A stretch of DNA of 64,000 nucleotides from Vulcanimicrobiota bacterium (lineage in GTDB: Bacteria; Vulcanimicrobiota; Xenobia; Xenobiales; Xenobiaceae). The stretch lies in assembly GCA_944322965.1 (NCBI GenBank), contig CALUQR010000006.1, forward strand, positions 38,456 to 102,455. The letters are read 5' to 3'. This document shows positions 19,736 to 52,450 of the stretch, piece after piece. The position numbers and the translations under genes were made by a program. Under the pieces are notes generated by a model that was not told where the DNA came from, made no database searches, and saw nothing but the letters and a program-made list of their open reading frames with translations. Within the stretch, counting starts at the first letter, position 1. Each line of letters opens with the position of its first letter.

Positions 19736-19757
19736 TTAAGCTAATTCGGAATTAGGC
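19736..19757. repeat. Solo copy of the TAAGCTAATTCGGAATTAGG motif shared with the terminal repeats of the MITE-like element. It overlaps the stop codon of the cysteine desulfurase gene.
   Basis: taagctaattcggaat is identical at 19736 and 36830. Confidence 0.5.
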
Positions 19758-21059: not shown

Positions 21060-21074
21060 AATTGCGTTCCTAAG

Positions 21075-22547
21075 TTAGAAGTTAGAGATTAGCTCTTTAG
21101 AGCTGCGGAACTGGGGTTTGAGCTCTAAGGCGGGAACCCGTTTGCCGCGGTACTCGTTATCTAAGAGCCCCAGTTGGGTGACGATAGTTTGGCGCATCTC
21201 CATAGCCCTTTCCAGACAGTAGTGGCGGAAGAGCTCCCCGGGCACTTGGTTGGCCCGGCGCACGTGGGGGAAGAGCAGCTTGAGGTAGGCGGTGGCGATC
21301 CTCTTAATAGCCTCCGTATCGCGAGTATCGGCGGTCGCAGGCACTTCCAGGATCTCGTCTACTACGGCCCGGTAGGCGGTGTCGCTGCGCAATTCGTGCA
21401 TGATGGAGCAGAAATATTCGGAGTTTAAGGCCCAACCCGAGACCTTAATATTCTCGCGGATACGGGGTATATTCCAACCCTTAATAAAGCCGTGGAAGCG
21501 CTCTATGAGGGCCGACTCTTGGAAGATGGGGGGCACCTCTTGGAACATATTGGCCTGTCCGTCCTGGTCCATAATCTCTTTGCGCAAGTTGCCGCAGAGC
21601 ACTACTCCCGCTTCCGAGCGCCCGTGGTAATTGCCCACCGTAAATTGGCCCGACTCCATATACCCTTTGAGAGCGGCGCGCATCTCGTCGACGTCGGAGA
21701 AGGCGATAGTCTGCACCTCGTCTAAGACTACGAAATCGTGGCCGGAGATGAGGCCCTCCCGTTTGGTATTCATATCGTAGAACATCTTGGCCCGCGTCAT
21801 CTTTCCGCCGCTAGAGAGCCAGCCGAAGCGACTGATCTGACCGAAGAGGTAGGATTTGCCCGTCCCTTTGGGGGCCAGCTCGATGAGGTTGAGCCTCTTC
21901 TCCACAAAGGGCAAGAGGCGGGTAAGCATAGTCAACTTCTCTTCTAAGTTGAGGTAGCCCTCGGGGTTATAGTCGATAGCCCCTAAGAGGATATCGACCC
22001 ACTCTTCTAAGCTAAAATCTTCGCGGGCCTCTTGGAAATAGTCGAGCTCCACTCGGTAGGGGCAGAAATTCTTAAAGGAGCGCAAGAGGATCTTCCCGGG
22101 GTCCCGATCTTGGGCGGGTTGGTAGCCTAGCTCGACGATCCCCCAGGCCCCGCCCTCTTTGGTGAGGTCATGGGCCACTTCGTCCCAGACGTACTGCTCG
22201 ATGAGCGTCTCCCTAAAGCCCAGGCCGAACTCGGGCAAGGCGAAATTGACTTGGCCGCGGTTAATGTCGATATTAGTCTCGATCTTAGTGAGAAAGCGCA
22301 CCTCCTTATTCTCTAAGACTACCTGGGCCTTGAGGGCCTCCCAGTCGCTGCGGCGGGGCACGTGGGTGCGCACGAACTCCCGAAACTCCTCCTTATCGAA
22401 GTTGCCCTCGCTATCTTCGAAGCGCTGTAAGAGCCAGTCGCGCATAAAGGACGGCAAGCCCAAGGAACTAAAGAAGGCGCTCTCCTTAAGGTCCTTATAG
22501 AGGGCCATCTCCTCAAAATTATCGCGCAATTTGGCAACCGTATCCAT
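21075..22547 (-). CDS. brxL: BrxL-like P-loop protein (Lon-related ATPase) of a type 4 BREX operon
   Basis: The Walker A motif ELAPKGTGKSYLFGQISRFGW and its position after pglZ. At 490 aa it is shorter than type 1 BrxL. Confidence 0.5.
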   Translation of the reverse strand: MDTVAKLRDNFEEMALYKDLKESAFFSSLGLPSFMRDWLLQRFEDSEGNFDKEEFREFVRTHVPRRSDWEALKAQVVLENKEVRFLTKIETNIDINRGQVNFALPEFGLGFRETLIEQYVWDEVAHDLTKEGGAWGIVELGYQPAQDRDPGKILLRSFKNFCPYRVELDYFQEAREDFSLEEWVDILLGAIDYNPEGYLNLEEKLTMLTRLLPFVEKRLNLIELAPKGTGKSYLFGQISRFGWLSSGGKMTRAKMFYDMNTKREGLISGHDFVVLDEVQTIAFSDVDEMRAALKGYMESGQFTVGNYHGRSEAGVVLCGNLRKEIMDQDGQANMFQEVPPIFQESALIERFHGFIKGWNIPRIRENIKVSGWALNSEYFCSIMHELRSDTAYRAVVDEILEVPATADTRDTEAIKRIATAYLKLLFPHVRRANQVPGELFRHYCLERAMEMRQTIVTQLGLLDNEYRGKRVPALELKPQFRSSKELISNF

Positions 22548-22559
22548 CTCTCTCGCTCC

Positions 22560-24935
22560 CTAAAAATCGAACTCGCTATTCTGGGTCATCCCCTTCTTCT
22601 TACTCACTTGTATCTGCAACTCTTTTTGCAAGACTCCGCCCCGGTAGAGTTCCAGGGTGTAGGCAGCGGGGCCGGGCGGTTTCTCCCAGTAGGCTCGGTA
22701 GATACTGGGTTTTTCCTCTTGCAGGGGCAGGACTTCATCGTTCCAGCGCAGCTCTAAGTCGGGGGCGTTCGTCCAGGGTACTTGCAGATGCAAGGTTATC
22801 CCCTTCTTGCGGGAGTATTCCGCGCTGGGGGTCAAGAGCTCGATAGCGGGCAGACGCTCGGGGGGTAGGCTAGCCTTAGAGCTTAAGACTAGGAGGGGGA
22901 TGACTACCTCCTCTAGGGAGGCGCCCCCATGGACTTCCACTGAGGCCGCCCGGCCGCCCTTAAAGCGCTCGTAGTCGGCTAAGACCCAGTAGCCATTCTC
23001 CCGGCTGACATTCTCTAAATTGCAATCTTCCCACTCCGAGCAGGGGCAACAGCGCCCGGAATGGCGCCCCTTCTGGGCCATCTCATAACTGGCCTCTCGA
23101 CCATAGAGCACAGCCAGACGGGAGGCCCCGTGGTCGCTAGCTAAGAGCAGGCGCTGACACTGGCCCGACTCTAAGCGGCGGGCGCAATCTTGGACCACCC
23201 GGCGCAAGAGGCTAAGTTCCGCGGGCAGGTGGGTGGCGGCCCGACTCTCTTTAGAGAAGTCGTAATCGGCGTTGCCATGTTTGAGTTTATCCAGCTCCGA
23301 CTCTTTAACTTTAGGGCCCTGCCACTCTTCGAAGAAGTCTTTATTAGTAGAGGTCAGCGTAGGCAGATTGGCTCGCAAGATAGAGACTTGGCACTTTAAA
23401 TTAAACTCCCGGCAGAGGGCGACTAAGTAGGGCAAGTACTCTACCCCTAAGGCGTCTACCCAGTAAAGGCAGCTCCCGGGCTGATCGTATTTGGCGATAG
23501 GCCCCTCCTTAGTAGAGAGGCGATTATAGAGGCGCTCTATAGCCTGTTGGCGCACGATCTCTAAAAAGTCGGCAGGGATCGAATTTAAGACTTTGGCCTC
23601 CCGGTAAGTTTGGAAGTAGGAGTCCATAAAGTCTAAGCTCCGGTCCTCTAAGGGCAACTTGTAAAAAGGGGCCGCCCCATTTAAATAGCGCCCTAAGTCG
23701 GGGTAATGCTTCTCTACCAATTGGCGCTCGCTAACCCCCAAACTCCCCTTTTGGGCTAAGTAGCGCAGCCACTCGATGCGCTCTATAGGGGTAAGGTCGC
23801 TTAAATAATTCTGGTAATCCTGCTGGCGGCGCAGCTGGGGCAGCCAGGTTTGAGCCCAGTCGGGGGTCAGCTGGTCTAAGGGCGAGCGCTTTAAAAGCTC
23901 ATAGCGCTCCCAGAAGAGCTCCTCCCGGGCGGAGGCCTGCTTAGGGGCGGATTCTTCCCAGAGGGTAGACCATAAGCGCTCCCCCAAATCTTCGGGCGTC
24001 TGGGAGGCGCGCATTACCCTCTCCAAGTAGCGTTGGGGCTGGGGATTTAAGCCGTACTCTTCCTTTAAGCCTAGCCACAATTGCCAGCGCTCTTGGATTT
24101 TGGCCTCGCCCCCTAAGGAGCTAGCCACCCGGGCTAAGCGCTCGGGCAGGGAGAGGCCGCTAGGGCGCAGCTCAGCCTCTAAACCCTTAGAGAGGGCGTC
24201 TATTTCTACTTCCCGGTGGCGCTCTAAGAGCTTCTCCCAACGCTCCGGGCTGCCCCAACCCTCTTCCCAGCGCATTAAGGGCCCTAAGCGCTCTTTAAAG
24301 ACCGCCCAGGCGGAATCTAAGGAGCGGATCTTGAGGCTAGCTTGGCTCCAGGGGATGGCGCTCTGGTAGTCCAGGCGGCGACTATCGCCCGGGCGCCACT
24401 CCTCTAGGGCGTAGAGGAGATTTTTTAAACCTTGGTAGCAATTGGAGCTAGGGGCCCAGCCCAGATCTTGCCAGCGCACGATCTCTAGCTCTAGTTGGGG
24501 GTTCCACTCCTCTAAGATATGGAGGTAAGGCTTAAAGCGCGGGTCGCGCTGGGCCGCCTCCTCCAAAAAGCGCTGCCGCCCCCGCCAGAGGAAGATCAGT
24601 TGCTGCTGTGGCTCTAAGGAGAGGCGCTCCTGGCGCTCTAAGAGCTCTTGCAGCCCCTCCCGATAGCCGCGCAGGGCGGCCCACTCCCCGCAGCCCACCA
24701 CTAAGATCTGGGCCCTAGGATTCTCCGCCAACTCCTGGCGCAGCGCCCGCCACAAGCGCTCAAAGTTGGGGATCTTGTCGGGATGGGGACAGTAGTCGGA
24801 GAGTCGCCAGGTGGTAAAACCCTCGCCAGCTAGGCTCTCGCGGGTCGCCCTCCACTCGGCCCCCACTACTAACCAGTGGGGCCGTCCCCCGCCGTAGGCG
24901 GGGGGCGCCGGTGCGCAATAAGAGTCCATCTCCAA
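22560..24935 (-). CDS. pglZ: PglZ-domain protein (alkaline-phosphatase superfamily) of BREX
   Basis: The C-terminal region carries YWVDALGVEYLPYL ... LLLASDHGASRL, the TSDHG-like PglZ signature. It is flanked by brxC and brxL. Confidence 0.6.
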   Translation of the reverse strand: MEMDSYCAPAPPAYGGGRPHWLVVGAEWRATRESLAGEGFTTWRLSDYCPHPDKIPNFERLWRALRQELAENPRAQILVVGCGEWAALRGYREGLQELLERQERLSLEPQQQLIFLWRGRQRFLEEAAQRDPRFKPYLHILEEWNPQLELEIVRWQDLGWAPSSNCYQGLKNLLYALEEWRPGDSRRLDYQSAIPWSQASLKIRSLDSAWAVFKERLGPLMRWEEGWGSPERWEKLLERHREVEIDALSKGLEAELRPSGLSLPERLARVASSLGGEAKIQERWQLWLGLKEEYGLNPQPQRYLERVMRASQTPEDLGERLWSTLWEESAPKQASAREELFWERYELLKRSPLDQLTPDWAQTWLPQLRRQQDYQNYLSDLTPIERIEWLRYLAQKGSLGVSERQLVEKHYPDLGRYLNGAAPFYKLPLEDRSLDFMDSYFQTYREAKVLNSIPADFLEIVRQQAIERLYNRLSTKEGPIAKYDQPGSCLYWVDALGVEYLPYLVALCREFNLKCQVSILRANLPTLTSTNKDFFEEWQGPKVKESELDKLKHGNADYDFSKESRAATHLPAELSLLRRVVQDCARRLESGQCQRLLLASDHGASRLAVLYGREASYEMAQKGRHSGRCCPCSEWEDCNLENVSRENGYWVLADYERFKGGRAASVEVHGGASLEEVVIPLLVLSSKASLPPERLPAIELLTPSAEYSRKKGITLHLQVPWTNAPDLELRWNDEVLPLQEEKPSIYRAYWEKPPGPAAYTLELYRGGVLQKELQIQVSKKKGMTQNSEFDF

Positions 24936-24956
24936 CCTCCCTTAAAGCCTGCTTAG

Positions 24957-27900
24957 TTAAAAGGGTTTATCGATTAGGGCGATCCCCAATTCCACATCGT
25001 CTTTAATGACATCCAGTAAGAGCGTTTTGAGCACCTCCGGGGGCAGCTCGTCTAAGCGGCGGCTGAGGCGGGGCAGCCCCGTCTCCTTATATTCCGCTTC
25101 GGCCAGCTCCTTAATGGCGGGCAACATCTGGGGTTCGGTCCAGTCGTAGACCGGCGCCTTCATCTTCTTAGCTAAGCTCTCGCAGAAGCTATGGGAGGAG
25201 GGCACGAAACTATGGTAATGGCCCGCCACCCGCTGCCGGAACTGGAGTTTAGCCCGGGGCAGGTCGTTCATTAAGCCAAAGAGCGAGCTCTTCTCCAGCC
25301 ACTCCAAGATGCGCTTGGCCTCCTCTTCCCCTAAGGAGGATTGGGAGTCGTTTAAAACTCGGAAGGCGGATTCCGAGATCTCGCGCTCCTCTTGGGGCAC
25401 TAAGTAGCGGATGGGGATGAGGTTTTTTTGCGACCATTCCCGAGGATTAGGGGAGCCGCTCTTCTCTTGCCACAGGCGTTGGATGCGCCCTTGCAAGCTC
25501 TTGCGCCGCTGGGAGGCGGCCAATTTTAAAACCTGCTTTTGGGCGGAATCGAGGGAGCCGCTCGAGATATTGAGGTGGCTAGCCCGCAACTGGGCGAAGA
25601 CCTCGCCCACCGAGTCGTCGTCTAAGCCCTGGAGCTGGGTCTTATAGAGGCTCTTAAAGGAGTCTAACTCGTTGCCAAAGAGCTCCCCTAACTTCTGACC
25701 CTCCTCCTGCAAAGCGCCCAGCCACTGCTTGCGCACTAGGTCGGAGTTATAATCCCGGTAACCCTTACATAAGCGGTCTAAGCGATCGACTAAGCCCGGG
25801 CTGAGGGCCCCGCTCTCTAAGCTCGTTAAGGTGGAGAAGGGCAAGCTGAGCTCGGAGAGGCGCTTACTGAGCTCGTTCATAGCCTCCTGGAGCCCACCCT
25901 TGGGACCTTGCCCTAAGAGATTCGTCAGACGCCAGAGGAGCTCTAACTCATCCCCTACCCCGGAGATCGTATCTTGGCCTATCTCCTTAGTCCAGGAGTA
26001 GGCCATGTCCGTCGAGAAGGCCGATTGCAGGCGCTCCTGGAGCTTTTTAGGCTCCCAACCCAATTGGGCCGTCAGCTTATTTAAGCGCCCCTCCTGGAAT
26101 TTATCTAAGAAGTCGCGCAAAGCTTGCAGGGCCTTATCCTTACCCACCGCCTCCCGCAGACGGCTAGCCCACTCCTGGCCCCGCTCTTGGTAGAGCCGGC
26201 CCAACTCTTGGGCTTTGGGGCGGGCGGAGGCCGGGCCCTCCTTAGAGATCTCCCAGAAGAGTTGCAAACCTTGGACCACCTGGGGATCGTCTAAGCGCTC
26301 CCAGACCATCCATAAGGGCCAGACCCGCTCCTTTAAGGCCGCCCCTAAACGCTTCTGCCAGCTGGAGAAGTCGGACTCGTTGAGCTTAAAACTCCACACA
26401 TAAGAGGCCAACTTCTTAAAGCTGACCATCTCCGGCGACTCTCGCACCAGGGTGACCTTATTCTTATCGTTCCCGCGCACGAGGTTATTGAGCTGGTCCT
26501 GGAGCTTCCCGATATCCATAACGCCCCCGGCCCCCGCCCGATCGGCGTAACTATATTTCGGGTCCTGGTACTCCTTTAAGAGGAAGCCTAAAAGGAAGCC
26601 GTAGAGGTTATTGGGCCTAAAGCAGGCCTCCTTAACTAGATAATTCCAGACCTCTTGCCAGCCGATGTGGCCGTTAGAGCCTAGATTTTTCTCCATCAGC
26701 TCTTCTAAATGGGCCTTCAATTGGGAGATGGGCAGAACCTTAAGTTGGGGGACCTGCCAATAATTGGGGACGCTCCACACCTCCCCTAAGCCCAGGCGCT
26801 TTTCGATCTCCGCCATCTCTCCCTTAGGCTGGGCGGGGGCCTCTAAGCCGGCCCGAATGAAGCGGGAGGGGCTCAAGTTGAGCCAGCTATCTTTGAGCCG
26901 CTCATTTAAATCGAATAAGGGGTAAGAGGATGAGGCGCTCAAGAGGCGCTTTAGCTCTTCGCAGAGGGTATTTAAGGTAGGATACTTCTGCCCCGGTTTC
27001 TTTAACTTAGAGCCATAGAGGCGGAAGGGCCCCTCCGCCAATTTGGAGAGCCAAACCTGCTCGAGGAGACTCTCCGCCTTCTTGCGACTCTCCTCCGCCT
27101 GGCTGCGGTCCTTGCTACTATAGAGCGAGGCGTAGGCCATGCCCTCAATATAGTCGCCAAAATTCTTGGGCGAGAGCAAGGTGGAGGTGAGATCTACTAA
27201 GACGGTCTGGCCCCCGCCCTCCTGTTCCCAGTCGACCTTATCCAAAAGATCCTCCAATTGGCGGCTCTCCCCTTCGTCTTTAGCTACTACTAACCCCCAC
27301 TTGAGCGGACTCTTGCGCTCTAAGAGGCGCTTCAACTGGCGACCAAAGTCGGAGACGGTCAAGAGTTCAGGAGTATCTAAACGCTGGGCCAGGGCCTTCC
27401 CTAAAGCCTCGCCGCTCATCTCTAAGAGGTGGTGCTCTTTAAGATACTTACTGGCTAAGTTGGAGGTAGTAATACTCTTAGCCAGGCGCTCTTTGATCTT
27501 CTCTAACTCGATCTCGTCGCCCACCCCTAAGGCCACCACGTAGCAGTAATCGTTACTAGAGATAGACCGATCCTTAGCGATAACGTGTTTCTCGCGCAGC
27601 TCCTCTAAGCTCTTAGCTACGCAATCGTTGGCTAGACCCTCCCCCACGAAGGCCCACTCTAAGTGTTCCTGGGTGGTCTCTAAGAGCTTCACTTGGTTAT
27701 TGCAGGCCCTATTGACGGCCAACATAATTAAGAGAGCTTGCAAGACCCGCCCCGCCTCCGGACTCAGGTGGCGAGCGTAGCGCTTATAAGTACCCAAGAT
27801 GCGGTTGGCGTCTGAGGTCAGGTCCTCTTTTTTATATTCGGTAAAGTACTGCCAAAGCAGGTCCACGGTCAGTAAGGGGCGGTCCCCGTAGGGGCCGTAG

Positions 27901-29156
27901 GTGTGGATATACCACTGGAAGGCGTAACTTTTGGGCTCCTCTAAGCGCAAGAAGTCAAATAAGCTGCGCTGGTTCGATTGGAAGGTAGTAGCTACAAACT
28001 TTAAGACCAGGGCCGCCAAGGGGTGGAGGGGCAAGATTTTAAATAGGGTCTCATGATCTTCTAGACGGGACTCAGCCCCTATAGCCTCTACCACCTTCTG
28101 CAGGCGCTGGCGCAGGATCTTGATATCTTCATTAAACTCTGAGGCCTTCTCAGGGAGAAGGTGCAAGGCGTTGGCGATTAAGTGGAAGGCCACATTTTCG
28201 GGCATATCGATGCCCACCCGTTCGAAGCGGTCTTGGATGGGATTGCCCTGGCTCTCTTCGCTAGCCGCGTGGTGGGTGACGATAGTCAGGAAGAAGTTGC
28301 CCTCTTGGGCCAGGGCGGCGATCTTCTGTAAGCTATCTAAGCTCTTGGCGTTGCGATTCATGTAGGAGGAGAATTCGTCCCACAGAAAGACCAGCTGGAT
28401 CCCATTGCGGGCGATGACCTCTCGCATCCAGGCCGTCAGACTGTCGACGCTGGGGGCCATAAAGATCTCCTCCTCTTGGCGCAAGAGCTCCACCAGGTTG
28501 CGCACTAAGGAACCCGTATCCTCCCCTTGGCGCAGATCATCTAAGATTTCTGCGGCCGTACTCTGGCTAAAGAGGTTGCACCAGGGAGACTGGCTCAGAT
28601 GGCGCTCTACGATAGACGCGTAGGGGGGATCGCTCAACTTTTCGATCAGGCGCTCTCGGCTGGTAGCATTCCCTAAGTAGGAGCAGCCCGCCTCTCGGAG
28701 GGCCTGGGAGATAGACTCCTCAAAGGCCAGACAGAGGTTAGTCGTATCGCCAATTTCACCCGAGCCGTAGCGGAAGGCGATCACCATCTTCTGGCGGCTC
28801 TTAAGGCCTAAGAACTTTTGTAAGAGGTCCTTACGCCCCTCCTTTAACTCCTGGAAGCGATCCCAATACTCTTGGACTTCCTGGGCGGGCCGCTCTAAGA
28901 TGCGGCGCAGGGCTAAAAGGCACTGGGACTTACCCGTCCCGTAGGGACCGTAGATCCACAGCCCCTTAGTGGAGGAGCCATTTAAGATCTGCTCGGCCTT
29001 CTCCAAGAGCTTAATGAAGGTGGGGTGGGGGTAAGTATTCTTCCACTCCGCCCCTCTCTTAATAGCCCCCAGGTCGATACAGGGGAAATAGTTCTTTTGT
29101 AGCTGGAAGTATTGGCTGTAAGTCTCCGTCTCCGGAGCGGCGAGCACGGCGGGCAT
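24957..29156 (-). CDS. brxC: BrxC/PglY-like large P-loop NTPase
   Basis: The N-terminal Walker A motif LWIYGPYGTGKSQCLLAL. The 1399-aa size and the position between brxP and pglZ also fit. Confidence 0.55.
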   Translation of the reverse strand: MPAVLAAPETETYSQYFQLQKNYFPCIDLGAIKRGAEWKNTYPHPTFIKLLEKAEQILNGSSTKGLWIYGPYGTGKSQCLLALRRILERPAQEVQEYWDRFQELKEGRKDLLQKFLGLKSRQKMVIAFRYGSGEIGDTTNLCLAFEESISQALREAGCSYLGNATSRERLIEKLSDPPYASIVERHLSQSPWCNLFSQSTAAEILDDLRQGEDTGSLVRNLVELLRQEEEIFMAPSVDSLTAWMREVIARNGIQLVFLWDEFSSYMNRNAKSLDSLQKIAALAQEGNFFLTIVTHHAASEESQGNPIQDRFERVGIDMPENVAFHLIANALHLLPEKASEFNEDIKILRQRLQKVVEAIGAESRLEDHETLFKILPLHPLAALVLKFVATTFQSNQRSLFDFLRLEEPKSYAFQWYIHTYGPYGDRPLLTVDLLWQYFTEYKKEDLTSDANRILGTYKRYARHLSPEAGRVLQALLIMLAVNRACNNQVKLLETTQEHLEWAFVGEGLANDCVAKSLEELREKHVIAKDRSISSNDYCYVVALGVGDEIELEKIKERLAKSITTSNLASKYLKEHHLLEMSGEALGKALAQRLDTPELLTVSDFGRQLKRLLERKSPLKWGLVVAKDEGESRQLEDLLDKVDWEQEGGGQTVLVDLTSTLLSPKNFGDYIEGMAYASLYSSKDRSQAEESRKKAESLLEQVWLSKLAEGPFRLYGSKLKKPGQKYPTLNTLCEELKRLLSASSSYPLFDLNERLKDSWLNLSPSRFIRAGLEAPAQPKGEMAEIEKRLGLGEVWSVPNYWQVPQLKVLPISQLKAHLEELMEKNLGSNGHIGWQEVWNYLVKEACFRPNNLYGFLLGFLLKEYQDPKYSYADRAGAGGVMDIGKLQDQLNNLVRGNDKNKVTLVRESPEMVSFKKLASYVWSFKLNESDFSSWQKRLGAALKERVWPLWMVWERLDDPQVVQGLQLFWEISKEGPASARPKAQELGRLYQERGQEWASRLREAVGKDKALQALRDFLDKFQEGRLNKLTAQLGWEPKKLQERLQSAFSTDMAYSWTKEIGQDTISGVGDELELLWRLTNLLGQGPKGGLQEAMNELSKRLSELSLPFSTLTSLESGALSPGLVDRLDRLCKGYRDYNSDLVRKQWLGALQEEGQKLGELFGNELDSFKSLYKTQLQGLDDDSVGEVFAQLRASHLNISSGSLDSAQKQVLKLAASQRRKSLQGRIQRLWQEKSGSPNPREWSQKNLIPIRYLVPQEEREISESAFRVLNDSQSSLGEEEAKRILEWLEKSSLFGLMNDLPRAKLQFRQRVAGHYHSFVPSSHSFCESLAKKMKAPVYDWTEPQMLPAIKELAEAEYKETGLPRLSRRLDELPPEVLKTLLLDVIKDDVELGIALIDKPF

Positions 29157-29162
29157 GGGGGG

Positions 29163-31592
29163 CTATACCTCCTGGATGAGCTCTAGGACCTGAGCCGAGG
29201 ACTGGGGTCCCAAATTGATAGAGTCGAGGTCATGTGTGAAGCTGACCTGAATATATTCGGGGTAACGGGCGTTTAATCCCAGTAAGGGGGCTTTAAGTTG
29301 AGCGGGAGTCGCCCCCCACAAGCGCAAGGGACTGACCGCCTGGCGCTCGGCGGTAGGATCGGCCAACTGCCCCAAATTGAAGGCCCGATACTCGCCCCCC
29401 ATAGCCTCCGCAAATTTAAATAGGCTGTAGAGTAAGACTAAAGGCGACCCCCACTTAGGAGCGGTGCGCACCAAATACTCCTCTTTGCCCTTCTTCTCTA
29501 CCCTGCCCCAATTGAGAACCGTCCCTAAGGGGGTGGCAGCTAGGCGTTTGAAAGCCTTAACGATAGAGGCCGCATCCTTATCGCTAATCCCCAGCTCTTT
29601 TAGAGCCCCCACCAACTCTTCCCGCGCATAACGGTGTTTCAGATCCATAAAGTTGGTGTACCAGGCCATTTGGGGGTTAGTGTAGACTAAATTAGTCAAA
29701 ATCAACCCCAAAGCGTTCTCTGAATCCCAGCCCAAACGAGAGATAAATTCCGCAAATTCAGTGAAGGTGTTGCGACCATTTAATCCAGCATCTCTCAAAA
29801 AACGCCGGAAGAAATCAAACATATTGGAACCTAGGCTATGTTCCGTATAGAACCTTTGCTTAAGTGCAAAGAATGAGCGCAACCATTCCGTCTTTGGTGC
29901 ATGGTCAGCAAAAGTGTTGAGGCTGCTTTTTACCATTTTATGAGCTCCTGTTCCAGGTGGGAAATGCAAGGATTTATAGGCCAGACAATTGCCTGGAATA
30001 TCATAACAATCATGACATTGACGACAGTTCTCTATACGAACTTCGCCCTCATGAAAACTTATGGCCCCATAAGGGCAAGTAATTTCACAAGTTTGACATG
30101 CAATACAATGAGCCGTTTTGCGTAAAACAGCCCGTAAGGAAGTAATAAATTTAGGAGATGATTTGACAGTGTGCGGGTCAACCGTAATTTTAAAACCCAA
30201 TGCAGTCTTCTCAAATTGTACTTCAAACGTCTCTTTGGGAGTCATCAGTGTCAGCGAATTGCCAAGTAAAAAGACGTCTCCAATAGTCTTAAACCATTGT
30301 CGCCAGTCGGATAGTGGCTTAACTAACTCAAAGACTAGAGTTCCATTTCGCTCACATTCTATGATGTGTGACTTGTTTTTGGCTAGTGATCGCCCATTAC
30401 GACGCAATTGCCAGCCACCGCCAACCAAATAGCTTAGTTTTAGCTTCTTTTGTTCTTCAACCGTAGTATCTGCATCTTTTTCGGGGACATCATAGCTATT
30501 ACGCACTATCTTGGCGAAACGTTCGACCTTATCAGTATAGTTAGCCCAACGGAAATAATTCGCCAGGTTACCTGTCATGGGGCACAATAAACACCCAGCT
30601 CTAGAGTTACCCTTCTTATAGCCAGCATTAATCGTTAAGTTTCTAGAGAATATGTAAAGCCAAATTTCGGCTGAATTCCATTCTAAGAGAGGATTGAAGC
30701 TGTATTGCCCCTTTTGTTTTTTGCTGTAATTGTCGTAAGTGTATTCTGAGCGGCTTAGGCTTTCTGCACGTCGTACGCCCACAAAGTCCAATCCCTTATA
30801 GTTGGGCTTACCGCTCAAACGGCGAAGAGTAAGTGTCTGCGGCGTACTCTTATGCACGCAACAACACCAGCGCGCCACCTTGGCAGGAGGAGCGAACTTA
30901 CGCCAAGATGCTTCAGGAGTACATTGGGCTTTTGTTCGTTCAAAAGATATGCCCTCATTACGACATTTACGCTCATCTTGACGAACAGCCGCCAAGGTGT
31001 CAGGAAATTCCATTCCTGTATCGGCGAAGAGAACAACAAAACTATTGGCAGGTAACGCTGATTTTACAAGGTCTAACAGGACGATACTGTCCTTGCCTCC
31101 CGAATAAGCCACATGGAATATATCGACTATTGATTGGTATCTTTCATACGCATCCAATATTTTTTGAATCGTATCCGCAACTAAGACTTCTAAAAGTTGA
31201 GAGTTAGCAGCGAGCATTGCCCCCATATCAATAGGTTTTAGAATTTGTTCCTTAAATACGCAGGAACTCATTTCAGCGTCAGAGAACAAGACGCCCTGCC
31301 CAGAGCTCGTTTCCCTACTTTCATCCCAATTGACATCAAAGAAAGTCACCGTTGGTTTTTCGTAAAGATTACCCCCACGCAGCTGAGCAATCAGTTGCCC
31401 CCGATAGTAATACTTGCTCCCTTCTGCCCACATATAAGGAACTGATTCATTAGAATCATATTTCCAACGAGAATTAAAACCCAAGAGATCCATTTCTTGG
31501 GCCCATACTGGTCTAGGCTCCTTAGAGAAGGCTAACGGCAAATCACGCAAGATGATTCCGCCGGTAGCGGGATCGTAGGCATAAGAATACAT
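29163..31592 (-). CDS. brxP: BrxP-like protein: a PAPS-reductase/PP-loop domain (SGGKDS) plus a 4Fe-4S ferredoxin-type motif (CIACQTCEITCP) and a C-terminal extension
   Basis: The PP-loop HVAYSGGKDSIVLLDLV and the CxxCxxCxxxCP cluster motif. DndC-like chemistry, in the type 4 BREX gene order brxP-brxC-pglZ-brxL. Confidence 0.65.
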   Translation of the reverse strand: MYSYAYDPATGGIILRDLPLAFSKEPRPVWAQEMDLLGFNSRWKYDSNESVPYMWAEGSKYYYRGQLIAQLRGGNLYEKPTVTFFDVNWDESRETSSGQGVLFSDAEMSSCVFKEQILKPIDMGAMLAANSQLLEVLVADTIQKILDAYERYQSIVDIFHVAYSGGKDSIVLLDLVKSALPANSFVVLFADTGMEFPDTLAAVRQDERKCRNEGISFERTKAQCTPEASWRKFAPPAKVARWCCCVHKSTPQTLTLRRLSGKPNYKGLDFVGVRRAESLSRSEYTYDNYSKKQKGQYSFNPLLEWNSAEIWLYIFSRNLTINAGYKKGNSRAGCLLCPMTGNLANYFRWANYTDKVERFAKIVRNSYDVPEKDADTTVEEQKKLKLSYLVGGGWQLRRNGRSLAKNKSHIIECERNGTLVFELVKPLSDWRQWFKTIGDVFLLGNSLTLMTPKETFEVQFEKTALGFKITVDPHTVKSSPKFITSLRAVLRKTAHCIACQTCEITCPYGAISFHEGEVRIENCRQCHDCYDIPGNCLAYKSLHFPPGTGAHKMVKSSLNTFADHAPKTEWLRSFFALKQRFYTEHSLGSNMFDFFRRFLRDAGLNGRNTFTEFAEFISRLGWDSENALGLILTNLVYTNPQMAWYTNFMDLKHRYAREELVGALKELGISDKDAASIVKAFKRLAATPLGTVLNWGRVEKKGKEEYLVRTAPKWGSPLVLLYSLFKFAEAMGGEYRAFNLGQLADPTAERQAVSPLRLWGATPAQLKAPLLGLNARYPEYIQVSFTHDLDSINLGPQSSAQVLELIQEV

Positions 31593-31638
31593 GGGACCTG
31601 GTACACATGACGAGGCATGCTTAATATATCATCAAGTT

Positions 31639-34600
31639 TTAGCTGCTGATTTTCCTCAGCAAACTAAGCCCGCGCTCTTCGCTCAGTCTCCCCAAGTATC
31701 CCCCCTCAATTAGATACTCTGAAATAGCCTCCATAGTTGGCCTAACTTTAGCTCGCTTCAAAACGACAACTAGCGCATCTTCGTAATCTATTTGGCACTC
31801 TTTCCGCATCAGTAAGCCAAGAATTTTTACTGTCCATTGCCTATGAGAAGGCAAAAGTAATTTAAAACGTTTACTAAATCGATAACAGTAGGAGCTCAAT
31901 AGATACTCATTCCAGGTATAACCGCAATAAGGTAAAGATAAGAATAAACTATTGGGAATATCTCCCACAGATAAGAATTCCGGCAAAATTTCATCTAGAA
32001 TACGATCAATTTCATCAACCTGAAAATCTACCATATTGGGCTGCACAAACTCTTTAGCATCAATGCGAACTAAGTATTGATAGCCATAGTCGAAGGCCAA
32101 TTGTCTAACCGCGCCCGGCTTTTCAGGAGCATTCAGAGCTTCACACCCCAGATCGTTTAGTTCATCCAAACTAACGATTTTCTCTCCCAAATCCTTACAC
32201 AACTGGCGCATCATATCCATACCGGAGATAGTATCCTGACCAAAACGATTAATAAAAGCGCTACTCCCTTTGCGTTGGTACTTGTCGGCCAAATACTTGA
32301 AGTAGAGCCCCTTGATCCAGGCCATTTCGGTCAGGCGCGAGTCGTTTAAGTAGTGCCACTCTTCTAAGGGTAAGGAGCTTAAAGTGAAGCTACCCTCCTT
32401 ATCTAAACCCTCTTCAATTATCCTTACCATCCGCTCCACTTCCTCTGGCGGCAGTTCGAAATAATTTAAGTTGAGATAACTGGCGCAGCGGCTGGCGGTG
32501 CTAGTCTCATTTAAAACTAACTCCTCGCCCTCGCCGATGGCTAATTTAATATCCGCTTCCCCTAAGTAGGGCAGGCGCTCCTGCAGTTGGGGTAAGGTCA
32601 ATAAACTCTCCCCGCCCCAGTGGGCCCGCACCTCCCCTAAGAGTAAGCGCTCTAAATTCTTTTCCTGAGGCTCTAAAGTATAAAAATACTCCTTCTGGCC
32701 CTTAGTAGTCTTAGTAATTAACCGACCAGGCAAGTTGAGGCGCTCTAAGAGACTGGGCCAAAGCTCTACCTGGCGCAAGTTCAACTCCTCTAAATTGTGG
32801 CGCGCCCCTAAACGCTCTAAGTTAAAGACCCTCCAATCGCGCTGGCGAGCCTCCTCCAAGATCTTCTCTAACCTCTTCTCTAACTGCGGGTAATAAAAAT
32901 AATAAGAGACGCCCTCCGCACTCTCTAAAGGTAAACCGCAACGCTCTAAAAGGTCCCTATAACCCTCCTCACTCAAAGCCAAAAGGGCGTCCCGCTGCGC
33001 GTGGCCACCATAGTTAGCGCGCACCTTGTACAAAAACTTCTTATAACCCAAACGGTCGCCCATCAAAATGCCCCCGCTCTGCTCCAAAGCCACCTGACGC
33101 AAAGCCTCGCCCAAAGGACCCCAAGAGACCGCCCTACACCTAACCGGCTCTAACTTCTCTCTTACCAGAGGCCCTTTCTCGGGGGCCGGTTGTGACTCTA
33201 ACCTATGTACTGCATCGGGGGCCAGAGGCCCATTCGTCGGCCCAGGTTGCACCTCTAACTCATTTACTGCCTCAGACACAGGTTCCGGCTCTAACCTAGG
33301 GTCTACCTCGGCTGCAGGCTCAATCTCTACCTCTTCCGCAGGCCCAGGCTCGGACTCCACCTCAGCCCCAACCTCAGCCTCTCCCGCAGGCACAACCTCA
33401 ACCGCGGGGGCCGGCTCTAGCTCCACCTCCTCTGGGGTTAGGTAGATAGTTACTAACTGGGGATCTAAATTGAGCTCCCTAAAGAGGCGCTGGAAGGTCT
33501 GTAAGCTCCAGCCCCGCTCCTCTTTGAGCCGCCACCAGTAGCCGCCAATCTCAAAGACGCCCTCCACCTCGCCCTCGGAACCCTTCTCCTCTAAACGAGC
33601 GCCCATAGCCCTCAAAGCCCCCTCCAAACGCTGAGGACCACAACTAAAATCTAACTTGCGCAATAAAGACAACTGCCACGAGATCCAACCCGCAGACTCT
33701 AACTCTACCCTGCCCCCCTCGCCCCGCCACTCCCAAGCCGCCGGCTCATACCCATAAAAAGCCTGCGCCCCCTCCCCCAGGGCCAGGGCCAAAGGCCCTT
33801 TCGTCGGGGCCGGTTTTGCCCCTAACTCAGATACTGCCTCGGGGGCAGGCTCCACTCTAACCTCAGTTACCGGAGACGCCTTCGTCGGGGCCGGTTGCGC
33901 CCCTAACTCCGACTCAGGCTCGGGCTCTTCCGCGGGCGCTACTTCCGCCTCCACCTCAGCATCTTCCGCGGGCCATACTTCCGACTCGGGCGCAGGCTCA
34001 GTCTCAACCTCAGGCGCTACCTCGGACACCGGATCCGACTCTGCCTCAGGCGCCACCTCAGCCTCCACCTCTTCCGCGAGCCCTACCTCGGGTTCTATCT
34101 CTCCTACAGTTGTATCTGCAATATAATCCGCAATCTGAGAGGCGGGGTAGAGGTAAATTTTTACCTGGCGCAAGTCGATCCCTAAATGCTTAAAGAGGGG
34201 GCGGAAAGCCTTGATACTCCACTTATAATCTTCCCGGCCTACAAAGACGCGCTCCCCAATTACTACGTGGGGCTCTGAGGAGGCCTCTCTCATAAAATCG
34301 ATCCTCCACTTTAAGGGGATCTCTACCCGCTCTAAAAGCTTAACTAAGCGCCAAGGATCAAATTCCTCTAATAGCTGACTAACCAGAGAAACCTGCCAAG
34401 CGCTCCAGCTGGGCTGGGAGAGCTCCTCCCCTAAATGGAACTTACCCTCACACTCCCAAGCGATAGGGAGATAACCCTCAAAATCGGTTACCAAATTGAA
34501 AGGGGTCAAATAGAAGGGCTGTCTATCCGCCGCCGCAACTTCCGCTGGGGGTGTCTCTATGCTTGCATCTACAACACTATCCACAGGCGGACTACTCTCT

Positions 34601-36753
34601 ACCGGGGCTGCGGGCGTAGGCGCGGGCTGGGGCAGGTGGTTAGAGATGGCGATCCGCTCAAAAGAGATCCCTAAATAACGGGCGCAGGCTTTAATGGCGT
34701 CCAAAACGCTAGCCTGGTCTTCATATAAGAGCAAATAGAGATCGGAATCTATGGCCACATACTTATGGCCTGGATAGCGACCCTCCATCTCCGCTGAGGA
34801 TCTAGTCAAGGCCAAATGGCAACGGTTATAGAGATCCTCTAAAGGACGCTCCCCTAAAGAGGTATGGACTAATAACCAACCCACAAAGCGATGTAAAAGC
34901 TCGGCCCAGCTGGGAGGGGTAATCTCTATCCCCTCCTCCCCAATCTGCAACCAACGCGGACCGCTAGGCGGAGCCGCTTTAACCTCCCCAACCCCAGGCT
35001 CTTCCTCTGGACTCAGGCCCGGAGCTAAATGGATCTTTAACCCCTCCTCTAAGAGCCAAGCCCCCTCCTGGGGAGCAGCCTCCCTAGGCGCATAATAAAG
35101 TTGGGGGCGCAACCCCAAAGCCCGACAACACTTACTGAGCGTATCTACTACTCGCTGGGGCTCGCTCTCTAAGAGCAGGTAAGCGCAGTCGGCTAAGACG
35201 ATGTAGGCCTTACCCGGATGATCCTTAGCCATCCCGGCGGCGCTGGCGGTCACCACTATCCCCCAGTCGGCCTCGTGCCTATAGAGCGCGGTCACATTGC
35301 TAGCTAACTTCTTCTCATAGAGCCAGCGCACAAAATTGACATAGAGCTGAGGCCAAGTGGGCGGAGAGACCGTCACCCTATCAAAACCTATCCCCAAAGC
35401 GGTAGGACGCAGACTCCCCAAATCAGCCTTGGGTCTCGCCGTAGTTGTAGGCTCAACCTTTTCCGGAGCTTTAATCTCCTCCATAACCCCCTGAGAACCG
35501 CCCACCAGGCCCATAATTTCCGCCAACTCCCGCTCCGGATCGCCCCCCGCCCCCGGACTAGGCTGGACCTGGGGAAGCGACCGCCCGGGAGGGGGCGCCT
35601 GAGCGGGCGGCGCCGACTGGATGGGCGGAGCGGACTGCGTTGGCAAAGTAGACCGAGCGGGAGGGGTAGGCCGGGCTGGCGGAACGGACTGGGTCTTAGG
35701 CTGGGCCGCAGGGGCTACGGAAATGCCGCCCCCTAAGCTAATCATGGTCTGACTGAGATCTAAATTGGAGACGTCTACCACCCCCTGCCCTGCCTTAGCA
35801 GTAGTAGCAGTAGAATTAGCCGCGTTGGCGGTAGCAATAGCGGCGGGTAGGGTCTTAGCCTTAGGCGCTGGCTGAGGGGCGGCCGCTTCCAAGCAGTAGA
35901 AGCTCAAGTCGCCCGGGTTCTTCCCTAAGGCGGTACTCAGAGCGCGCAAGTTGGCCAAGATCTGCTGCGGCTGGTTGTAAATGGGTAAGTATAAGCCCGG
36001 ACGGACCCCTAAGACGGGCGTGCGGTAAGGGGCTTTAATATACAACTCTACCTTACTGCCCATTAAGAAGCCATTTTGCTGGAGACAGAGGACGCAGGCC
36101 TCCGGGGTGAGTTTGGACATCAAAATTAAGAGGGCGATGCGGTAAGCCTCCGACCACCTCTCCTGAGGGACGGGATAATAAAAATTCTTAAAGCGCACGT
36201 AAAGCGGCGCCTTACTAGCCAACTGGGAGGCCGACTGCAGACTATTGATCCCAATCGGCCACAAGCTATCCCCACTGCTAGGAGGCCTAGCCTCTAAAAG
36301 CGCCCCCTTATCCAACTTAGCCCGCAAAGAGGCCCAACTATCCACCTTCTCCGGACTAGGCTTAACCGCCCTAGAGGTTGCAGTCGTCGCCGCAGGGGAC
36401 GCCGCAGGAGTCGCCGGCACGGAGGTGGGCTGCACCTGCGCAGGCGCAGGCTGAGGCTCTGGACGCTGATCGACTACCGGAGGGACTATAACTAGATCCT
36501 CCCCCAAACGCCAACCGGCCCGCAAAGTCTGGTACTGGGTATCGTAGACCTGCTTTAAGCCGCTAGCCAAAAGCAAGGACTCCAAAGCCTCCGCCTCTTG
36601 AATGTAAGTAACCCGCATTAGAGGCTGACACTCCCGTGCCTGATGCTGGACCTTAGCCAGATGGACCGCTAACCTCGCGCACAACTCCCGCCCCAAAGCC
36701 GCTAACCGCTCCAACTTCGCCAACTCCGCCCCCGAAATCGCCCTGCGCTCCAT
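31639..36753 (-). CDS. Giant (1704 aa) hypothetical protein with internally duplicated ~110-aa modules of two types, separated by acidic E/P/A/V-rich linkers, and a non-repetitive ~650-aa C-terminal region. It lies 46 bp upstream of brxP and is co-directional with it.
   Basis: Repeated blocks: PPxWxxLxxxFVxWL...G+xY+...YLLL...LG, and W..SL..L...D..........F.IG....WS...F..LF..L..D.QV.IYL.P. No recognisable catalytic motif. Confidence 0.6.
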   Translation of the reverse strand: MERRAISGAELAKLERLAALGRELCARLAVHLAKVQHQARECQPLMRVTYIQEAEALESLLLASGLKQVYDTQYQTLRAGWRLGEDLVIVPPVVDQRPEPQPAPAQVQPTSVPATPAASPAATTATSRAVKPSPEKVDSWASLRAKLDKGALLEARPPSSGDSLWPIGINSLQSASQLASKAPLYVRFKNFYYPVPQERWSEAYRIALLILMSKLTPEACVLCLQQNGFLMGSKVELYIKAPYRTPVLGVRPGLYLPIYNQPQQILANLRALSTALGKNPGDLSFYCLEAAAPQPAPKAKTLPAAIATANAANSTATTAKAGQGVVDVSNLDLSQTMISLGGGISVAPAAQPKTQSVPPARPTPPARSTLPTQSAPPIQSAPPAQAPPPGRSLPQVQPSPGAGGDPERELAEIMGLVGGSQGVMEEIKAPEKVEPTTTARPKADLGSLRPTALGIGFDRVTVSPPTWPQLYVNFVRWLYEKKLASNVTALYRHEADWGIVVTASAAGMAKDHPGKAYIVLADCAYLLLESEPQRVVDTLSKCCRALGLRPQLYYAPREAAPQEGAWLLEEGLKIHLAPGLSPEEEPGVGEVKAAPPSGPRWLQIGEEGIEITPPSWAELLHRFVGWLLVHTSLGERPLEDLYNRCHLALTRSSAEMEGRYPGHKYVAIDSDLYLLLYEDQASVLDAIKACARYLGISFERIAISNHLPQPAPTPAAPVESSPPVDSVVDASIETPPAEVAAADRQPFYLTPFNLVTDFEGYLPIAWECEGKFHLGEELSQPSWSAWQVSLVSQLLEEFDPWRLVKLLERVEIPLKWRIDFMREASSEPHVVIGERVFVGREDYKWSIKAFRPLFKHLGIDLRQVKIYLYPASQIADYIADTTVGEIEPEVGLAEEVEAEVAPEAESDPVSEVAPEVETEPAPESEVWPAEDAEVEAEVAPAEEPEPESELGAQPAPTKASPVTEVRVEPAPEAVSELGAKPAPTKGPLALALGEGAQAFYGYEPAAWEWRGEGGRVELESAGWISWQLSLLRKLDFSCGPQRLEGALRAMGARLEEKGSEGEVEGVFEIGGYWWRLKEERGWSLQTFQRLFRELNLDPQLVTIYLTPEEVELEPAPAVEVVPAGEAEVGAEVESEPGPAEEVEIEPAAEVDPRLEPEPVSEAVNELEVQPGPTNGPLAPDAVHRLESQPAPEKGPLVREKLEPVRCRAVSWGPLGEALRQVALEQSGGILMGDRLGYKKFLYKVRANYGGHAQRDALLALSEEGYRDLLERCGLPLESAEGVSYYFYYPQLEKRLEKILEEARQRDWRVFNLERLGARHNLEELNLRQVELWPSLLERLNLPGRLITKTTKGQKEYFYTLEPQEKNLERLLLGEVRAHWGGESLLTLPQLQERLPYLGEADIKLAIGEGEELVLNETSTASRCASYLNLNYFELPPEEVERMVRIIEEGLDKEGSFTLSSLPLEEWHYLNDSRLTEMAWIKGLYFKYLADKYQRKGSSAFINRFGQDTISGMDMMRQLCKDLGEKIVSLDELNDLGCEALNAPEKPGAVRQLAFDYGYQYLVRIDAKEFVQPNMVDFQVDEIDRILDEILPEFLSVGDIPNSLFLSLPYCGYTWNEYLLSSYCYRFSKRFKLLLPSHRQWTVKILGLLMRKECQIDYEDALVVVLKRAKVRPTMEAISEYLIEGGYLGRLSEERGLSLLRKISS

Positions 36754-36829
36754 CCCTGCTAAGACCTATCCCTTAAAAATAGTTATCCCAAAAATACCCC
36801 ATTTAACATTAAGGTAACTTTTCCTTCTT

Positions 36830-37183
36830 TAAGCTAATTCGGAATGCTTAATGCGTAATGCGGAATTAAGAGGCTCTTGTTAATGGCCCAACAGATCCGG
36901 CAATAACTTGGCCTATGAGAGGATCGCTGGCAGTTCCACTGCCTTTTTGGCGCTTCGGTTATGGCGCGCCCCCCGGCCGCACCGCACCATGACGATTTTC
37001 CCTCTAGCTAAGCTACCTTCGGAACCAGCCAACAACTAAGTCCTTGCTCTCTCGCCCCTAAGTCATCGCCAAAACGAAAGTTAGAGCCACAACCTCCCTC
37101 CCGCCGCACTACCCCAATTACGCATTAAGCATTCGTAATTCCGAATTACGCATTCCTAATTCCGAATTACGAATTCCGCATTG
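36830..37183. repeat. MITE-like element copy 1 (~350 bp). Its terminal inverted repeats are built from TAATTCGGAAT / TACGCATTA motifs. The internal part contains a ggcagttccactgcc hairpin.
   Basis: The left end taagctaattcggaatgcttaatgcgtaatgcggaattaag is the reverse complement of the right end ...acgcattaagcattcgtaattccgaattacgcattcc.... The internal sequence is homologous to 62340-62660. Confidence 0.6.
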
Positions 37184-37256
37184 TCTTCTGCCTAAACAAC
37201 GTGATAATATGCGGGTAAGAGAGGTCAAAGGTCTTTAGAGAAAGGTACTGATTAGT

Positions 37257-52048: not shown

Positions 52049-52124
52049 TGGAGCGGAAGAAGAGATTCGAACTCTCGACCCTTGCCTTGGCAAGGCAATG
52101 CTCTACCGCTGAGCTACTTCCGCA
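52049..52124 (-). tRNA. tRNA-Gly(GCC), copy 1
   Basis: The reverse complement GCGGAAGTAGCTCAGCGGTAGAGCA TTGCC-TTGCCAA-GGCAA ...TTCGAATC...CTCCA forms a cloverleaf with anticodon GCC. Confidence 0.9.
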
Positions 52125-52180
52125 TCTACTATTTACTTATCCCCCCAGACGCCAAACCCAGACCCGCAAAAAGAAAAAGT

Positions 52181-52256
52181 TGGAGCGGAAGAAGAGATTC
52201 GAACTCTCGACCCTTGCCTTGGCAAGGCAATGCTCTACCGCTGAGCTACTTCCGCA
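52181..52256 (-). tRNA. tRNA-Gly(GCC), copy 2 (identical tandem duplicate)
   Basis: The sequence is identical to copy 1. A 56-nt spacer separates them. Confidence 0.9.
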
Positions 52257-52284
52257 TCTCCAACCATTCTGTCCCTCGTCTGGG

Positions 52285-52367
52285 TGGTGGGCAGGAAGGG
52301 ACTCGAACCCTTACGATTGCTCACTGGCTCCTAAGACCAGCGCGTCTACCATTCCGCCACCTGCCCC
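52285..52367 (-). tRNA. tRNA-Leu(TAG) with a long variable arm
   Basis: The reverse complement GGGGCAGGTGGCGGAATGGTAGACGC CTGGT-CTTAGGA-GCCAG ... CCCACCA. Confidence 0.85.
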
Positions 52368-52374
52368 GAAGGGG

Positions 52375-52450
<76 letters not shown>

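Follow-up and report, generated by a model that had tools for sequence, protein, structure and literature searches.

A modular palindromic repeat family that brackets rpn genes in a lineage of Vulcanimicrobiota

The window, that is, the whole 64,000-nt stretch of DNA analyzed here (57.7% GC), carries members of a dispersed, non-coding, multi-copy repeat family, of which approximately 50 further modules were recovered from six other loci and from strain variants. The elements are built from a small set of ordered modules around a covarying apical hairpin, rpn genes are sandwiched between their blocks, and breakpoints between strains lie at the borders of their heptamer arrays. With moderate confidence, we read the family as a REPIN/BIME-like recombination module tied to rpn cassettes, the window copies being rpn-less solo copies. 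The dispersed, non-coding character of the family had been proposed in a first-pass annotation of the window and is borne out. The local segmental duplication considered there as the alternative is ruled out by the approximately 50 modules located beyond the window.

Two full copies (36830–37183 and 62246–62694) and a half copy were found where they had been annotated, and they share a diverged core (identity roughly 70–77% in our alignment, compared with the approximately 75% given originally). Both full copies contain the core hairpin GGCAGTTYCACTGCC (36929–36943; 62395–62409) and the GACGATTTTCC block, as described. The ends of the copies are indeed inverted, and they are better described as inverted tandem heptamer arrays than as the short self-complementary units of the first description. 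A 17-nt left-end remnant at 19741–19757 had been overlooked.

Domain and ORF context agree with the placement of copy 1 between a BREX block and an RTX-protease gene: the copy is located in a divergent intergenic region, with the start of a 1704-aa gene on one side and an RTX/Peptidase_M91 gene on the other. This 1704-aa gene is the first of a BREX type 4 block (BrxP, BrxC, PglZ, BrxL, and an SspA/DndA-like desulfurase). Copy 2 is located between convergent genes for a TPR protein, which has its own perfect-stem terminator, and a lipoprotein. It had been placed next to an IS30 remnant, but the IS30-like piece (a 92-aa HTH_38 ORF, 60616–60894) is 1.3 kb away and the TPR gene lies between, so the two are not adjacent. 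Copy 2 differs from copy 1 by an insert of approximately 85 nt after the hairpin and is preceded by an additional outer heptamer array and a small GC hairpin. The features of the window copies are listed below.

19735–19757, plus strand: left-end remnant TTTAAGCTAATTCGGAATTAGG, the first 18 nt being an exact direct repeat of the copy 1 start; left border of the strain-variable BREX island.
36828–36845, plus strand: the 18-nt direct repeat again, marking the right edge of the BREX island and the start of copy 1.
36830–36868, plus strand: left heptamer array of copy 1, (AATKCGK)n, from TRF and the dimer pattern count.
36863–36928, plus strand: L arm of copy 1 with the conserved box GGAATTAA..CTTGTTAATGG..GATCCGG..GAGAGGATCGCT, from nhmmer and the alignment of 25 L modules.
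36929–36948, plus strand: apical hairpin of copy 1, GGCAGTTCCACTGCC followed by TTTTT, from covariation over 25 copies.
36949–36985, plus strand: apex of copy 1, a GC-rich palindromic segment, GGCGC..GGCGCGCC..CCGGCCGC.
36961–37119, plus strand: R arm of copy 1, rich in C and approximating the L arm in reverse complement, with approximately 50 extra nt, GACGATTTTCC..TCTCGCCCCTAAG..AAAGTTAGAGCC.
37113–37183, plus strand: right heptamer array of copy 1, (MCGMATT)n, ending GCATTG; a strain recombination breakpoint lies inside it at approximately 37152.
37181–37208: promoter-like site of the RTX gene, beginning at the last bases of the copy 1 right array.
62246–62305, plus strand: outer left heptamer array ahead of copy 2, with a nested small GC hairpin (62282–62305).
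62306–62394, plus strand: left heptamer array and L arm of copy 2.
62395–62413, plus strand: apical hairpin of copy 2, GGCAGTTTCACTGCC followed by TTTT.
62420–62507, plus strand: optional apex insert of copy 2, approximately 85 nt, which contains the inverted repeat CCAATTG..CAATTGG and is shared by about half of the full elements.
62508–62694, plus strand: R arm and right heptamer array of copy 2.
62695–62882, plus strand: half copy, consisting of an extra R arm, a right heptamer array, and a nested GC hairpin (62843–62866).
62883–62910, no strand assigned: GC hairpin TTGCCGCCGCCGCAGGCGGCGGCAAC; some rpn genes (L023; second gene of L034) are preceded by a hairpin of this kind, placed after the right array and ahead of the promoter.

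The array units are AATKCGK on the left and its reverse complement, MCGMATT, on the right, with a TRF period of 7 and a 21-nt super-period in copy 1. The heptamer dimer AATKCGKAATKCGK (≤1 mismatch) was counted 25 times in the window, compared with 0.19 ± 0.42 in shuffles, and the matches were confined to 19743–19756, 36836–37182, and 62248–62881. Array lengths differed between strains by 7 and 14 bp (L034 compared with L035); the arrays are thus intergenic tandem 7-nt units of variable copy number, as in STRR-type repeats. When the element was searched against plasmids by blastn, only its heptamer arrays were matched, in Nostocales plasmids. A cyanobacterial origin, which the heptamers had suggested, was rejected: HIP1 occurs three times in 64 kb and is not enriched, and GroEL falls beside Candidatus Bruticola. 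This GroEL, from a locus apparently on the 266,792-bp scaffold of the window, is 93% identical to proteins of Candidatus Bruticola MAGs and 72–73% identical to other Xenobia/Eremiobacterota proteins. The host, an uncultured and gut-associated bacterium, is on this evidence related to Candidatus Bruticola (Xenobiaceae, Vulcanimicrobiota).

Further copies were obtained through exact-protein look-ups of neighboring genes, and all added sequences were metagenome contigs from closely related strains. With nhmmer, 25 L and 27 R modules were detected in the window and five loci, and more were found in two further loci; approximately 50 modules lie within approximately 190 kb. The elements are 280–450 nt long and have stop codons in all frames. 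The modules follow a constant order: a left heptamer array (often split by a small GC-rich hairpin), the L arm (approximately 70 nt), the apical hairpin, an optional insert of approximately 85 nt, a GC-rich palindromic segment, the R arm (approximately 130–160 nt), and a right heptamer array ending GCATTG. Single L or R modules occur as well, and within blocks L always precedes R (LR, LRR, LLRR, LLLLRR). On the plus strand, the L arm is G/T-rich, and C makes up 41% and G 16% of the R arm. When reverse-complemented, the R arm resembles the L arm (approximately 68% identity in a transition-blind alignment), and the full unit is therefore a long imperfect palindrome with the heptamer arrays outermost.

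Copies are 50–90% identical to each other (median 75% for L and 68% for R), and the only L/R pair exceeding 90% flanks one rpn gene. Despite the pairwise identity of approximately 75%, 44 of the 132 columns in the L-module alignment are invariant or nearly so. Metagenome contigs repeatedly end inside an element (L021, L023, L033, L036, and L041), as is expected of a multi-copy sequence. An exact-pattern scan of a genome contig collection with the hairpin block gave one chance match, in a coding region of an Amphritea MAG. A metagenome contig collection scanned exactly with the AAAGTTAGAG block yielded 16 matches, none of which extended past the pattern. Two pattern scans of viral contigs gave 0 matches, and a protein database search with a spurious ORF read through the element returned none.

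The gene flanked by the blocks belongs to PF04754 (Transposase_31; Rpn/YhgA-like PD-(D/E)XK) and is multi-copy. The Transposase_31 family has carried its transposase annotation for twenty years, and neither ends nor targets are known for it. L..R blocks on the rpn strand bracketed each of the seven intact rpn genes, which came from five independent loci, and also one rpn remnant; rpn was the route to these loci, so the linkage describes a biased sample and is no genome-wide statistic. The loci were L023, L033, L034 (two genes; counterpart L035), L036 (with the near-identical L037 and L041), and L040, and the remnant was in L020. In approximately 122 kb of DNA away from rpn, made up of the window and what remained of the 10-kb flanks, modules were found only at the two window sites, and no rpn remnants were detected in the window by tblastn. 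L023, on the contig continuing past the right end of the window, has eight modules, distributed on both sides of its PF04754 gene. With the L023 Rpn protein as query, some fifty clusters (90% identity level) were retrieved at 61–92% identity, all from ENA metagenome assemblies and a few also in NCBI or Logan; the next relatives were ≤37% identical. Two distant Rpn loci (Beggiatoa alba, L039; an unidentified bacterium, L038) have short ordinary intergenic regions without such repeats, so the link between repeat and rpn is lineage-specific and not a general property of Rpn.

Upstream of rpn, a right array is followed, often after a small GC hairpin, by a conserved promoter-like TTGCSA-N17/18-TAYAMT and then by a leader and the gene. 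Downstream, the heptamers start at or directly past the rpn stop codon in most loci. Whole clusters that were examined open with a left array or an L module, and those whose end is on the contig close with an R block and a right array; rpn is therefore located between two complete blocks in direct orientation. When the flanks of six rpn genes were compared, the flanking L modules of two were among the most similar pairs (98.8% and 88.8% identity, median 72.5%), and the flanking blocks of the other four were not unusually similar. The rpn paralogues are 73–89% identical and their flanks 59–87%. L033 and L036 are 87% identical upstream and 74.5% identical in the rpn gene. Flank similarity thus does not track gene similarity, which points to exchange between flanks. 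A possible rpn-deleted derivative at an R-to-L junction (L036, 11440–11700) was rejected, as the sequence proved to be an unrelated perfect 28-bp palindrome.

The 17-kb BREX island beside copy 1 (19757–36753) is bounded by the exact 18-nt direct repeat TTTAAGCTAATTCGGAAT at 19735 and 36828. The repeat corresponds to the element's left end and has two exact matches, with 0 expected. Without the island and one of the two repeat copies, the order would simply be PKS–copy 1–RTX. Strain variant L020 is without window positions 19705–36830 and joins window 19306–19704 (96.5% identity) to window 37152 onward (96.9%). At the join, L020 has approximately 1 kb in which two other family members (76–78% identical to copy 1) surround the 3′ remnant of an rpn gene, and its identity to the window rises from approximately 77 to 97% at 37152, inside the right array. 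Between L034 and L035, a 208-bp R module has been gained or lost; its borders are formed by a 17-nt direct repeat internal to the element, GCCGCGCCACCCC(C)AATT, which indicates recombination. All strain differences examined map to arrays or array borders and correspond to heptamer slippage or direct-repeat recombination. Nested self-insertion, in which the outer L would pair with the outer R, was rejected as the origin of the L..L R..R order, because partner-specific L–R matching inside blocks was looked for and was not detectable. The order is more simply explained by arm-wise tandem duplication, a change of the kind seen between L034 and L035.

Among the structural features, the apical hairpin has the best support: its stem covaries over 25 L modules (GGCAG/CTGCC, GCGG/CCGC, GGAGGC/GCCTCC, and GGGCGC/GCGCC). 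The consensus fold of the minus strand, calculated from 14 full elements, is a rod in which R pairs with L. In these elements, 92.5% of the L:R cells were paired, compared with 29–52% when the partner was slid. Double-change L:R cells numbered 23, compared with 9.8 ± 2.6 in column shuffles of the 14 elements, which are related sequences; the L:R changes were mostly one-sided transitions. On the 32 long-range predicted pairs, 85 G-U wobbles were counted on the minus strand and 18 on the plus strand, and a pairing-blind (transition-blind) arm alignment gave 96 and 31, respectively. The L arm is G/T-rich on the plus strand but the R arm is C-rich, so this approximately 3:1 asymmetry does not stem from a uniform strand mutation bias. 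The wobble and pairing statistics favor the strand opposite to the one implied in the first-pass annotation. Copy 1 folded at −144 kcal/mol (z −6.1) on the minus strand and −103 kcal/mol (z −3.8) on the plus strand. In single-sequence folding, 5 of the 14 copies had |z| < 2 on both strands, and the minus strand had the lower z in only 8 of 14. The data are compatible with either RNA or DNA as the single-stranded form.

No Rfam family was matched in the window at the gathering threshold apart from tRNAs. At E ≤ 10, both copies and both strands gave no family either, the best local matches (E 0.9–5) being far under the threshold. A clear T-run follows the hairpin in roughly half of the 25 L modules, and several solo L modules run on into TTTAG, CCAAAG, or heptamers instead. 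The L module is disfavored as an rpn terminator, the T-run not being conserved. The R arm was rejected as a plus-strand structured RNA, for which RNAalifold predicted no pairs. Promoters and terminators were not in excess in the elements relative to shuffles.

In the reading that we prefer, the blocks, and above all the heptamer arrays, would serve as recombination joints. Slippage and unequal crossing-over would multiply or remove arms, and exchange between the two blocks flanking an rpn gene would delete the gene and leave a solo copy, comparable to a solo LTR. Cassettes, whether rpn with its promoter or the BREX type 4 island beside copy 1, would enter and leave at array borders. Recombination, possibly with nicks made by Rpn and template switching, would thus spread both copies and cassettes, and a minus-strand single-stranded form (DNA or RNA) would be what selection sees.

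Rpn/YhgA-like proteins are widespread, multi-copy, and annotated as transposases; they are toxic nucleases with a part in anti-phage defense, and no DNA site, end, or vehicle of spread is known for them (PMC5350276, PMC10400941). E. coli RpnA is a nuclease that is non-specific in vitro and for which no target site is known, and it promotes RecA-independent recombination by priming template switching (PMC5350276). The rpn genes are described as not autonomously mobile (PMC10400941). A role for Rpn is inferred here from the constant linkage together with these published properties of E. coli Rpn proteins, non-specific nicking among them (PMC5350276). The elements could be the native DNA substrates of an Rpn/YhgA-like subfamily that would nick the hairpin or the arrays, with nick-primed template switching copying elements, rpn cassettes, and nearby defense islands from site to site; we put this forward as a tentative proposal that is on the whole unlikely.

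The first-pass annotation had offered a non-autonomous transposon as one explanation. The element is small and non-coding and has inverted ends and a structured core, in line with that proposal, but target-site duplications, sharp termini, and near-identical copies are all absent. Target-site duplications were checked at the flanks of copy 1, copy 2, the half copy, and the two L020 copies (L020a and L020b), and none was found; the sole flanking direct repeat, of 18 nt, encloses the BREX island and not an element. Terminal inverted repeats are present, but as arrays of variable length without fixed termini. Signs of recent mobility, namely near-identical dispersed copies or presence/absence polymorphism with precise ends, were not seen. 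A cognate autonomous element was sought, and no copy had a gene between L and R, rpn always lying outside, between blocks. The element is not an active MITE. It might still be a classical MITE mobilized in trans, either by Rpn as a genuine transposase or by a transposase whose gene lies elsewhere. Such an origin would fit the many dispersed intergenic copies with inverted ends, small size, and no coding capacity, as well as the contigs that break at copies, and the constant L-before-R order (LLRR and the like) could reflect nested self-insertion beside the hairpin. Against it are the missing duplications at copy 1, copy 2, and the L020 copies, the fuzzy array termini, the lack of near-identical dispersed copies, the lack of a gene between the arms, and the one module gain or loss observed, which is bounded by the 17-nt internal repeat and indicates recombination. 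The partner-specific complementarity expected from nested insertion is also missing, and RpnA is a non-specific nuclease in vitro (PMC5350276). We consider this origin very improbable. The blocks may instead be passive, satellite-like flanks, that is, functionless non-coding DNA that was co-duplicated with rpn, decayed, and expanded by slippage, with solo copies as leftovers of rpn loss. The age and divergence of the copies (median 68–75% identity) agree with this, as do the polymorphisms, all of which are slippage or unequal recombination, the ranges of identity in paralogues (73–89%) and flanks (59–87%), and the lack of a promoter or terminator excess over shuffles. Neutral decay is difficult to reconcile with the strongly uneven conservation (the 44 invariant or near-invariant L-box columns), the compensatory changes in the hairpin, the maintained arm complementarity with its 3:1 wobble bias beyond neutral strand bias, and the flank similarity that does not follow gene similarity in L033 and L036; passive flanks are unlikely in our view.

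The first-pass annotation had also suggested a small-RNA or regulatory module. A structured RNA, most likely the minus-strand rod, would account for the G-U enrichment on that strand, the fold of copy 1 (z −6.1 compared with −3.8), and the covarying hairpin. It could have a regulatory, antisense, or stability role and might control the toxic rpn or insulate it from read-through. In keeping with such a role, the R arm upstream of every rpn has a plus strand that is rich in C, poor in G, and without structure, resembling a Rho loading region, and the hairpin with its T-run is terminator-like in some copies. However, neither strand matches Rfam, no conserved promoter was found for a minus-strand transcript, and the T-run is missing in many copies. 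The orientation toward neighbors other than rpn is also inconsistent, since copy 1 would precede a minus-strand gene as its 5′ leader and copy 2 would follow one as its 3′ trailer. Moreover, G-T is the most stable mismatch in single-stranded DNA as well, and z-scores are weak for a third of the copies. An RNA function of this kind appears distinctly unlikely. The recombination module, with its breakpoints at array borders and its rpn sandwich, is the reading retained below.

The repeat brackets every rpn gene examined in one lineage and is thus a testable candidate for an Rpn site, and strain-level rearrangements, including the gain of a BREX island, map to its borders. If Rpn does act on it, the repeat would be the first cis-acting sequence for this protein family, and the partnership of Rpn and repeat would be analogous to that of RAYT and REPIN. 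If the link is hitch-hiking only, the family would be an ordinary, if elaborate, intergenic repeat. To our knowledge, this is the first REP/BIME-like repeat system described in the uncultured phylum Vulcanimicrobiota (Eremiobacterota). The repeat also accounts for the fragmentation of assemblies of these genomes at such places.

Among known systems, E. coli BIMEs and pneumococcal BOX elements consist of few module types in variable number and order, are intergenic, and are predicted to form stable stem-loops; their module copy number varies between strains. The element resembles them in its mosaic build, placement, stem-loops, and strain-variable modules, but has no sequence similarity to them, and they contain no heptamer arrays. 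No obligatory neighbor gene is known for BIMEs or BOX. Mosaic repeats of these kinds are reviewed in PMC3184786. MITEs such as cyanobacterial Nezha and the Neisseria Correia elements are likewise small, non-coding, and dispersed, have inverted ends, and are often located near promoters. The element differs from them in that it lacks target-site duplications, fixed bases at its ends, and an autonomous partner element with a gene inside, and in that its copies are old and diverged; the changes observed here come from recombination or slippage. As with solo LTRs, a cassette, here rpn, lies between two blocks that resemble each other and point the same way, and single blocks occur alone elsewhere; the analogy covers only the origin of solo copies, as there is no retroelement machinery here.

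Cyanobacterial STRR sequences and the TAACTGA repeats of Beggiatoaceae (PMC4679880) are also intergenic 7-nt arrays of changing copy number. Their units differ from AATKCGK, and they are free-standing direct repeats, whereas the arrays of the element are inverted pairs that form the outer arms of a larger palindrome.

REPIN/REP sequences and their RAYT partners (Bertels & Rainey 2011, PMC3116915) differ from the element in several respects. The element is three to five times longer than a REPIN (280–450 nt) and has heptamer-array ends and optional inserts, and its building block is not a short REP of about 20–40 nt but arms of 70–160 nt with arrays. The partner gene is a multi-copy PD-(D/E)XK Rpn here and a single-copy HUH (IS200-like) RAYT there; no RAYT or HUH gene was seen in the loci examined. 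The hosts are Vulcanimicrobiota and Proteobacteria, respectively. The two systems are alike in being intergenic and non-coding, with two inverted arms that form one long hairpin (here the consensus rod of 14 elements), in the many diverged copies on either side of a nuclease- or transposase-like gene presumed to act on them, and in a structure maintained through compensatory change (PMC3116915).

The BREX type 4 island varied among strains and was wholly missing from one of them, the strain variant of this region on metagenome contig L020. An 18-nt direct repeat was found at both borders of the island, and no recognisable integrase was present within it (window 19757-36753). Its 1704-aa protein had no Pfam or PADLOC match.

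Window 19757-36753: BREX type 4 island, with SspA/DndA-like desulfurase, BrxL, PglZ, BrxC, BrxP, and the 1704-aa protein
Window 37257-39020 and 39208-40929: RTX/Peptidase_M91 paralogues
Window 60616-60894: IS30-type transposase fragment, a 92-aa ORF with the HTH_38 domain only

The RTX/Peptidase_M91 genes form a tandem paralogous pair, in which RTX calcium-binding repeats are fused to a Peptidase_M91 effector-like domain, and their 3' parts were ~80% identical. A 79-nt tandem unit (window 41165-41377; 2.7 copies, 79% matches) was located between the second gene of the pair and a histidine-kinase gene, and was not related to the palindromic heptamer family (AATKCGK/MCGMATT arrays). Two very large PKS/PUFA-synthase-like genes (window 5018-19690) also carried internal tandem repeats, with four ~318-nt units at 8601-9706, as well as duplicated ketosynthase segments. 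A cluster of four tRNA genes was located on the minus strand (window 52052-52450), and two of these were identical copies, 132 bp apart.

The first-pass annotation had placed the second heptamer-family copy beside an IS30 remnant. An HTH_38 ORF of IS30 type does exist, but a TPR gene lies between the two. Smaller structures were observed within and next to the repeat blocks, both in the window and in contigs of related strains or paralogous loci (L-numbers).

Window 62282-62305, 62843-62866, and 62883-62910, and numerous sites in L023, L033, and L034: small GC-rich hairpins
L036 11553-11611 and window 62200-62245: perfect long palindromes

The hairpins, e.g., GCTAGCCGCCGGGACGGCGGCTAGC, were nested within heptamer arrays. 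They resemble an additional, third repeat family, very small and with a preference for these arrays as its site. The perfect palindromes (28-bp and 20-bp stems, loops of 4-5 nt) adjoined the repeat blocks and are probably bidirectional terminators.

In L034 (12979-19350), separate DNA_topoisoIV-domain genes of 930 and 504 aa were observed, with a GyrB-like gene adjoining; the pair may represent a split or duplicated topoisomerase subunit. Inside rpn nuclease genes (PF04754) bracketed by heptamer-family blocks, a promoter-like site, ATGAAA-N16-TATAAT, was conserved.

L034 8980-9007 and 10563-10590: internal promoter-like sites of rpn genes

Both this site and the C-terminal portion of rpn were retained in the L020 remnant (760-1215). 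The remnant could be a free-standing antitoxin gene of the RpnS type, analogous to the antitoxins encoded within rpn genes (PMC10400941).
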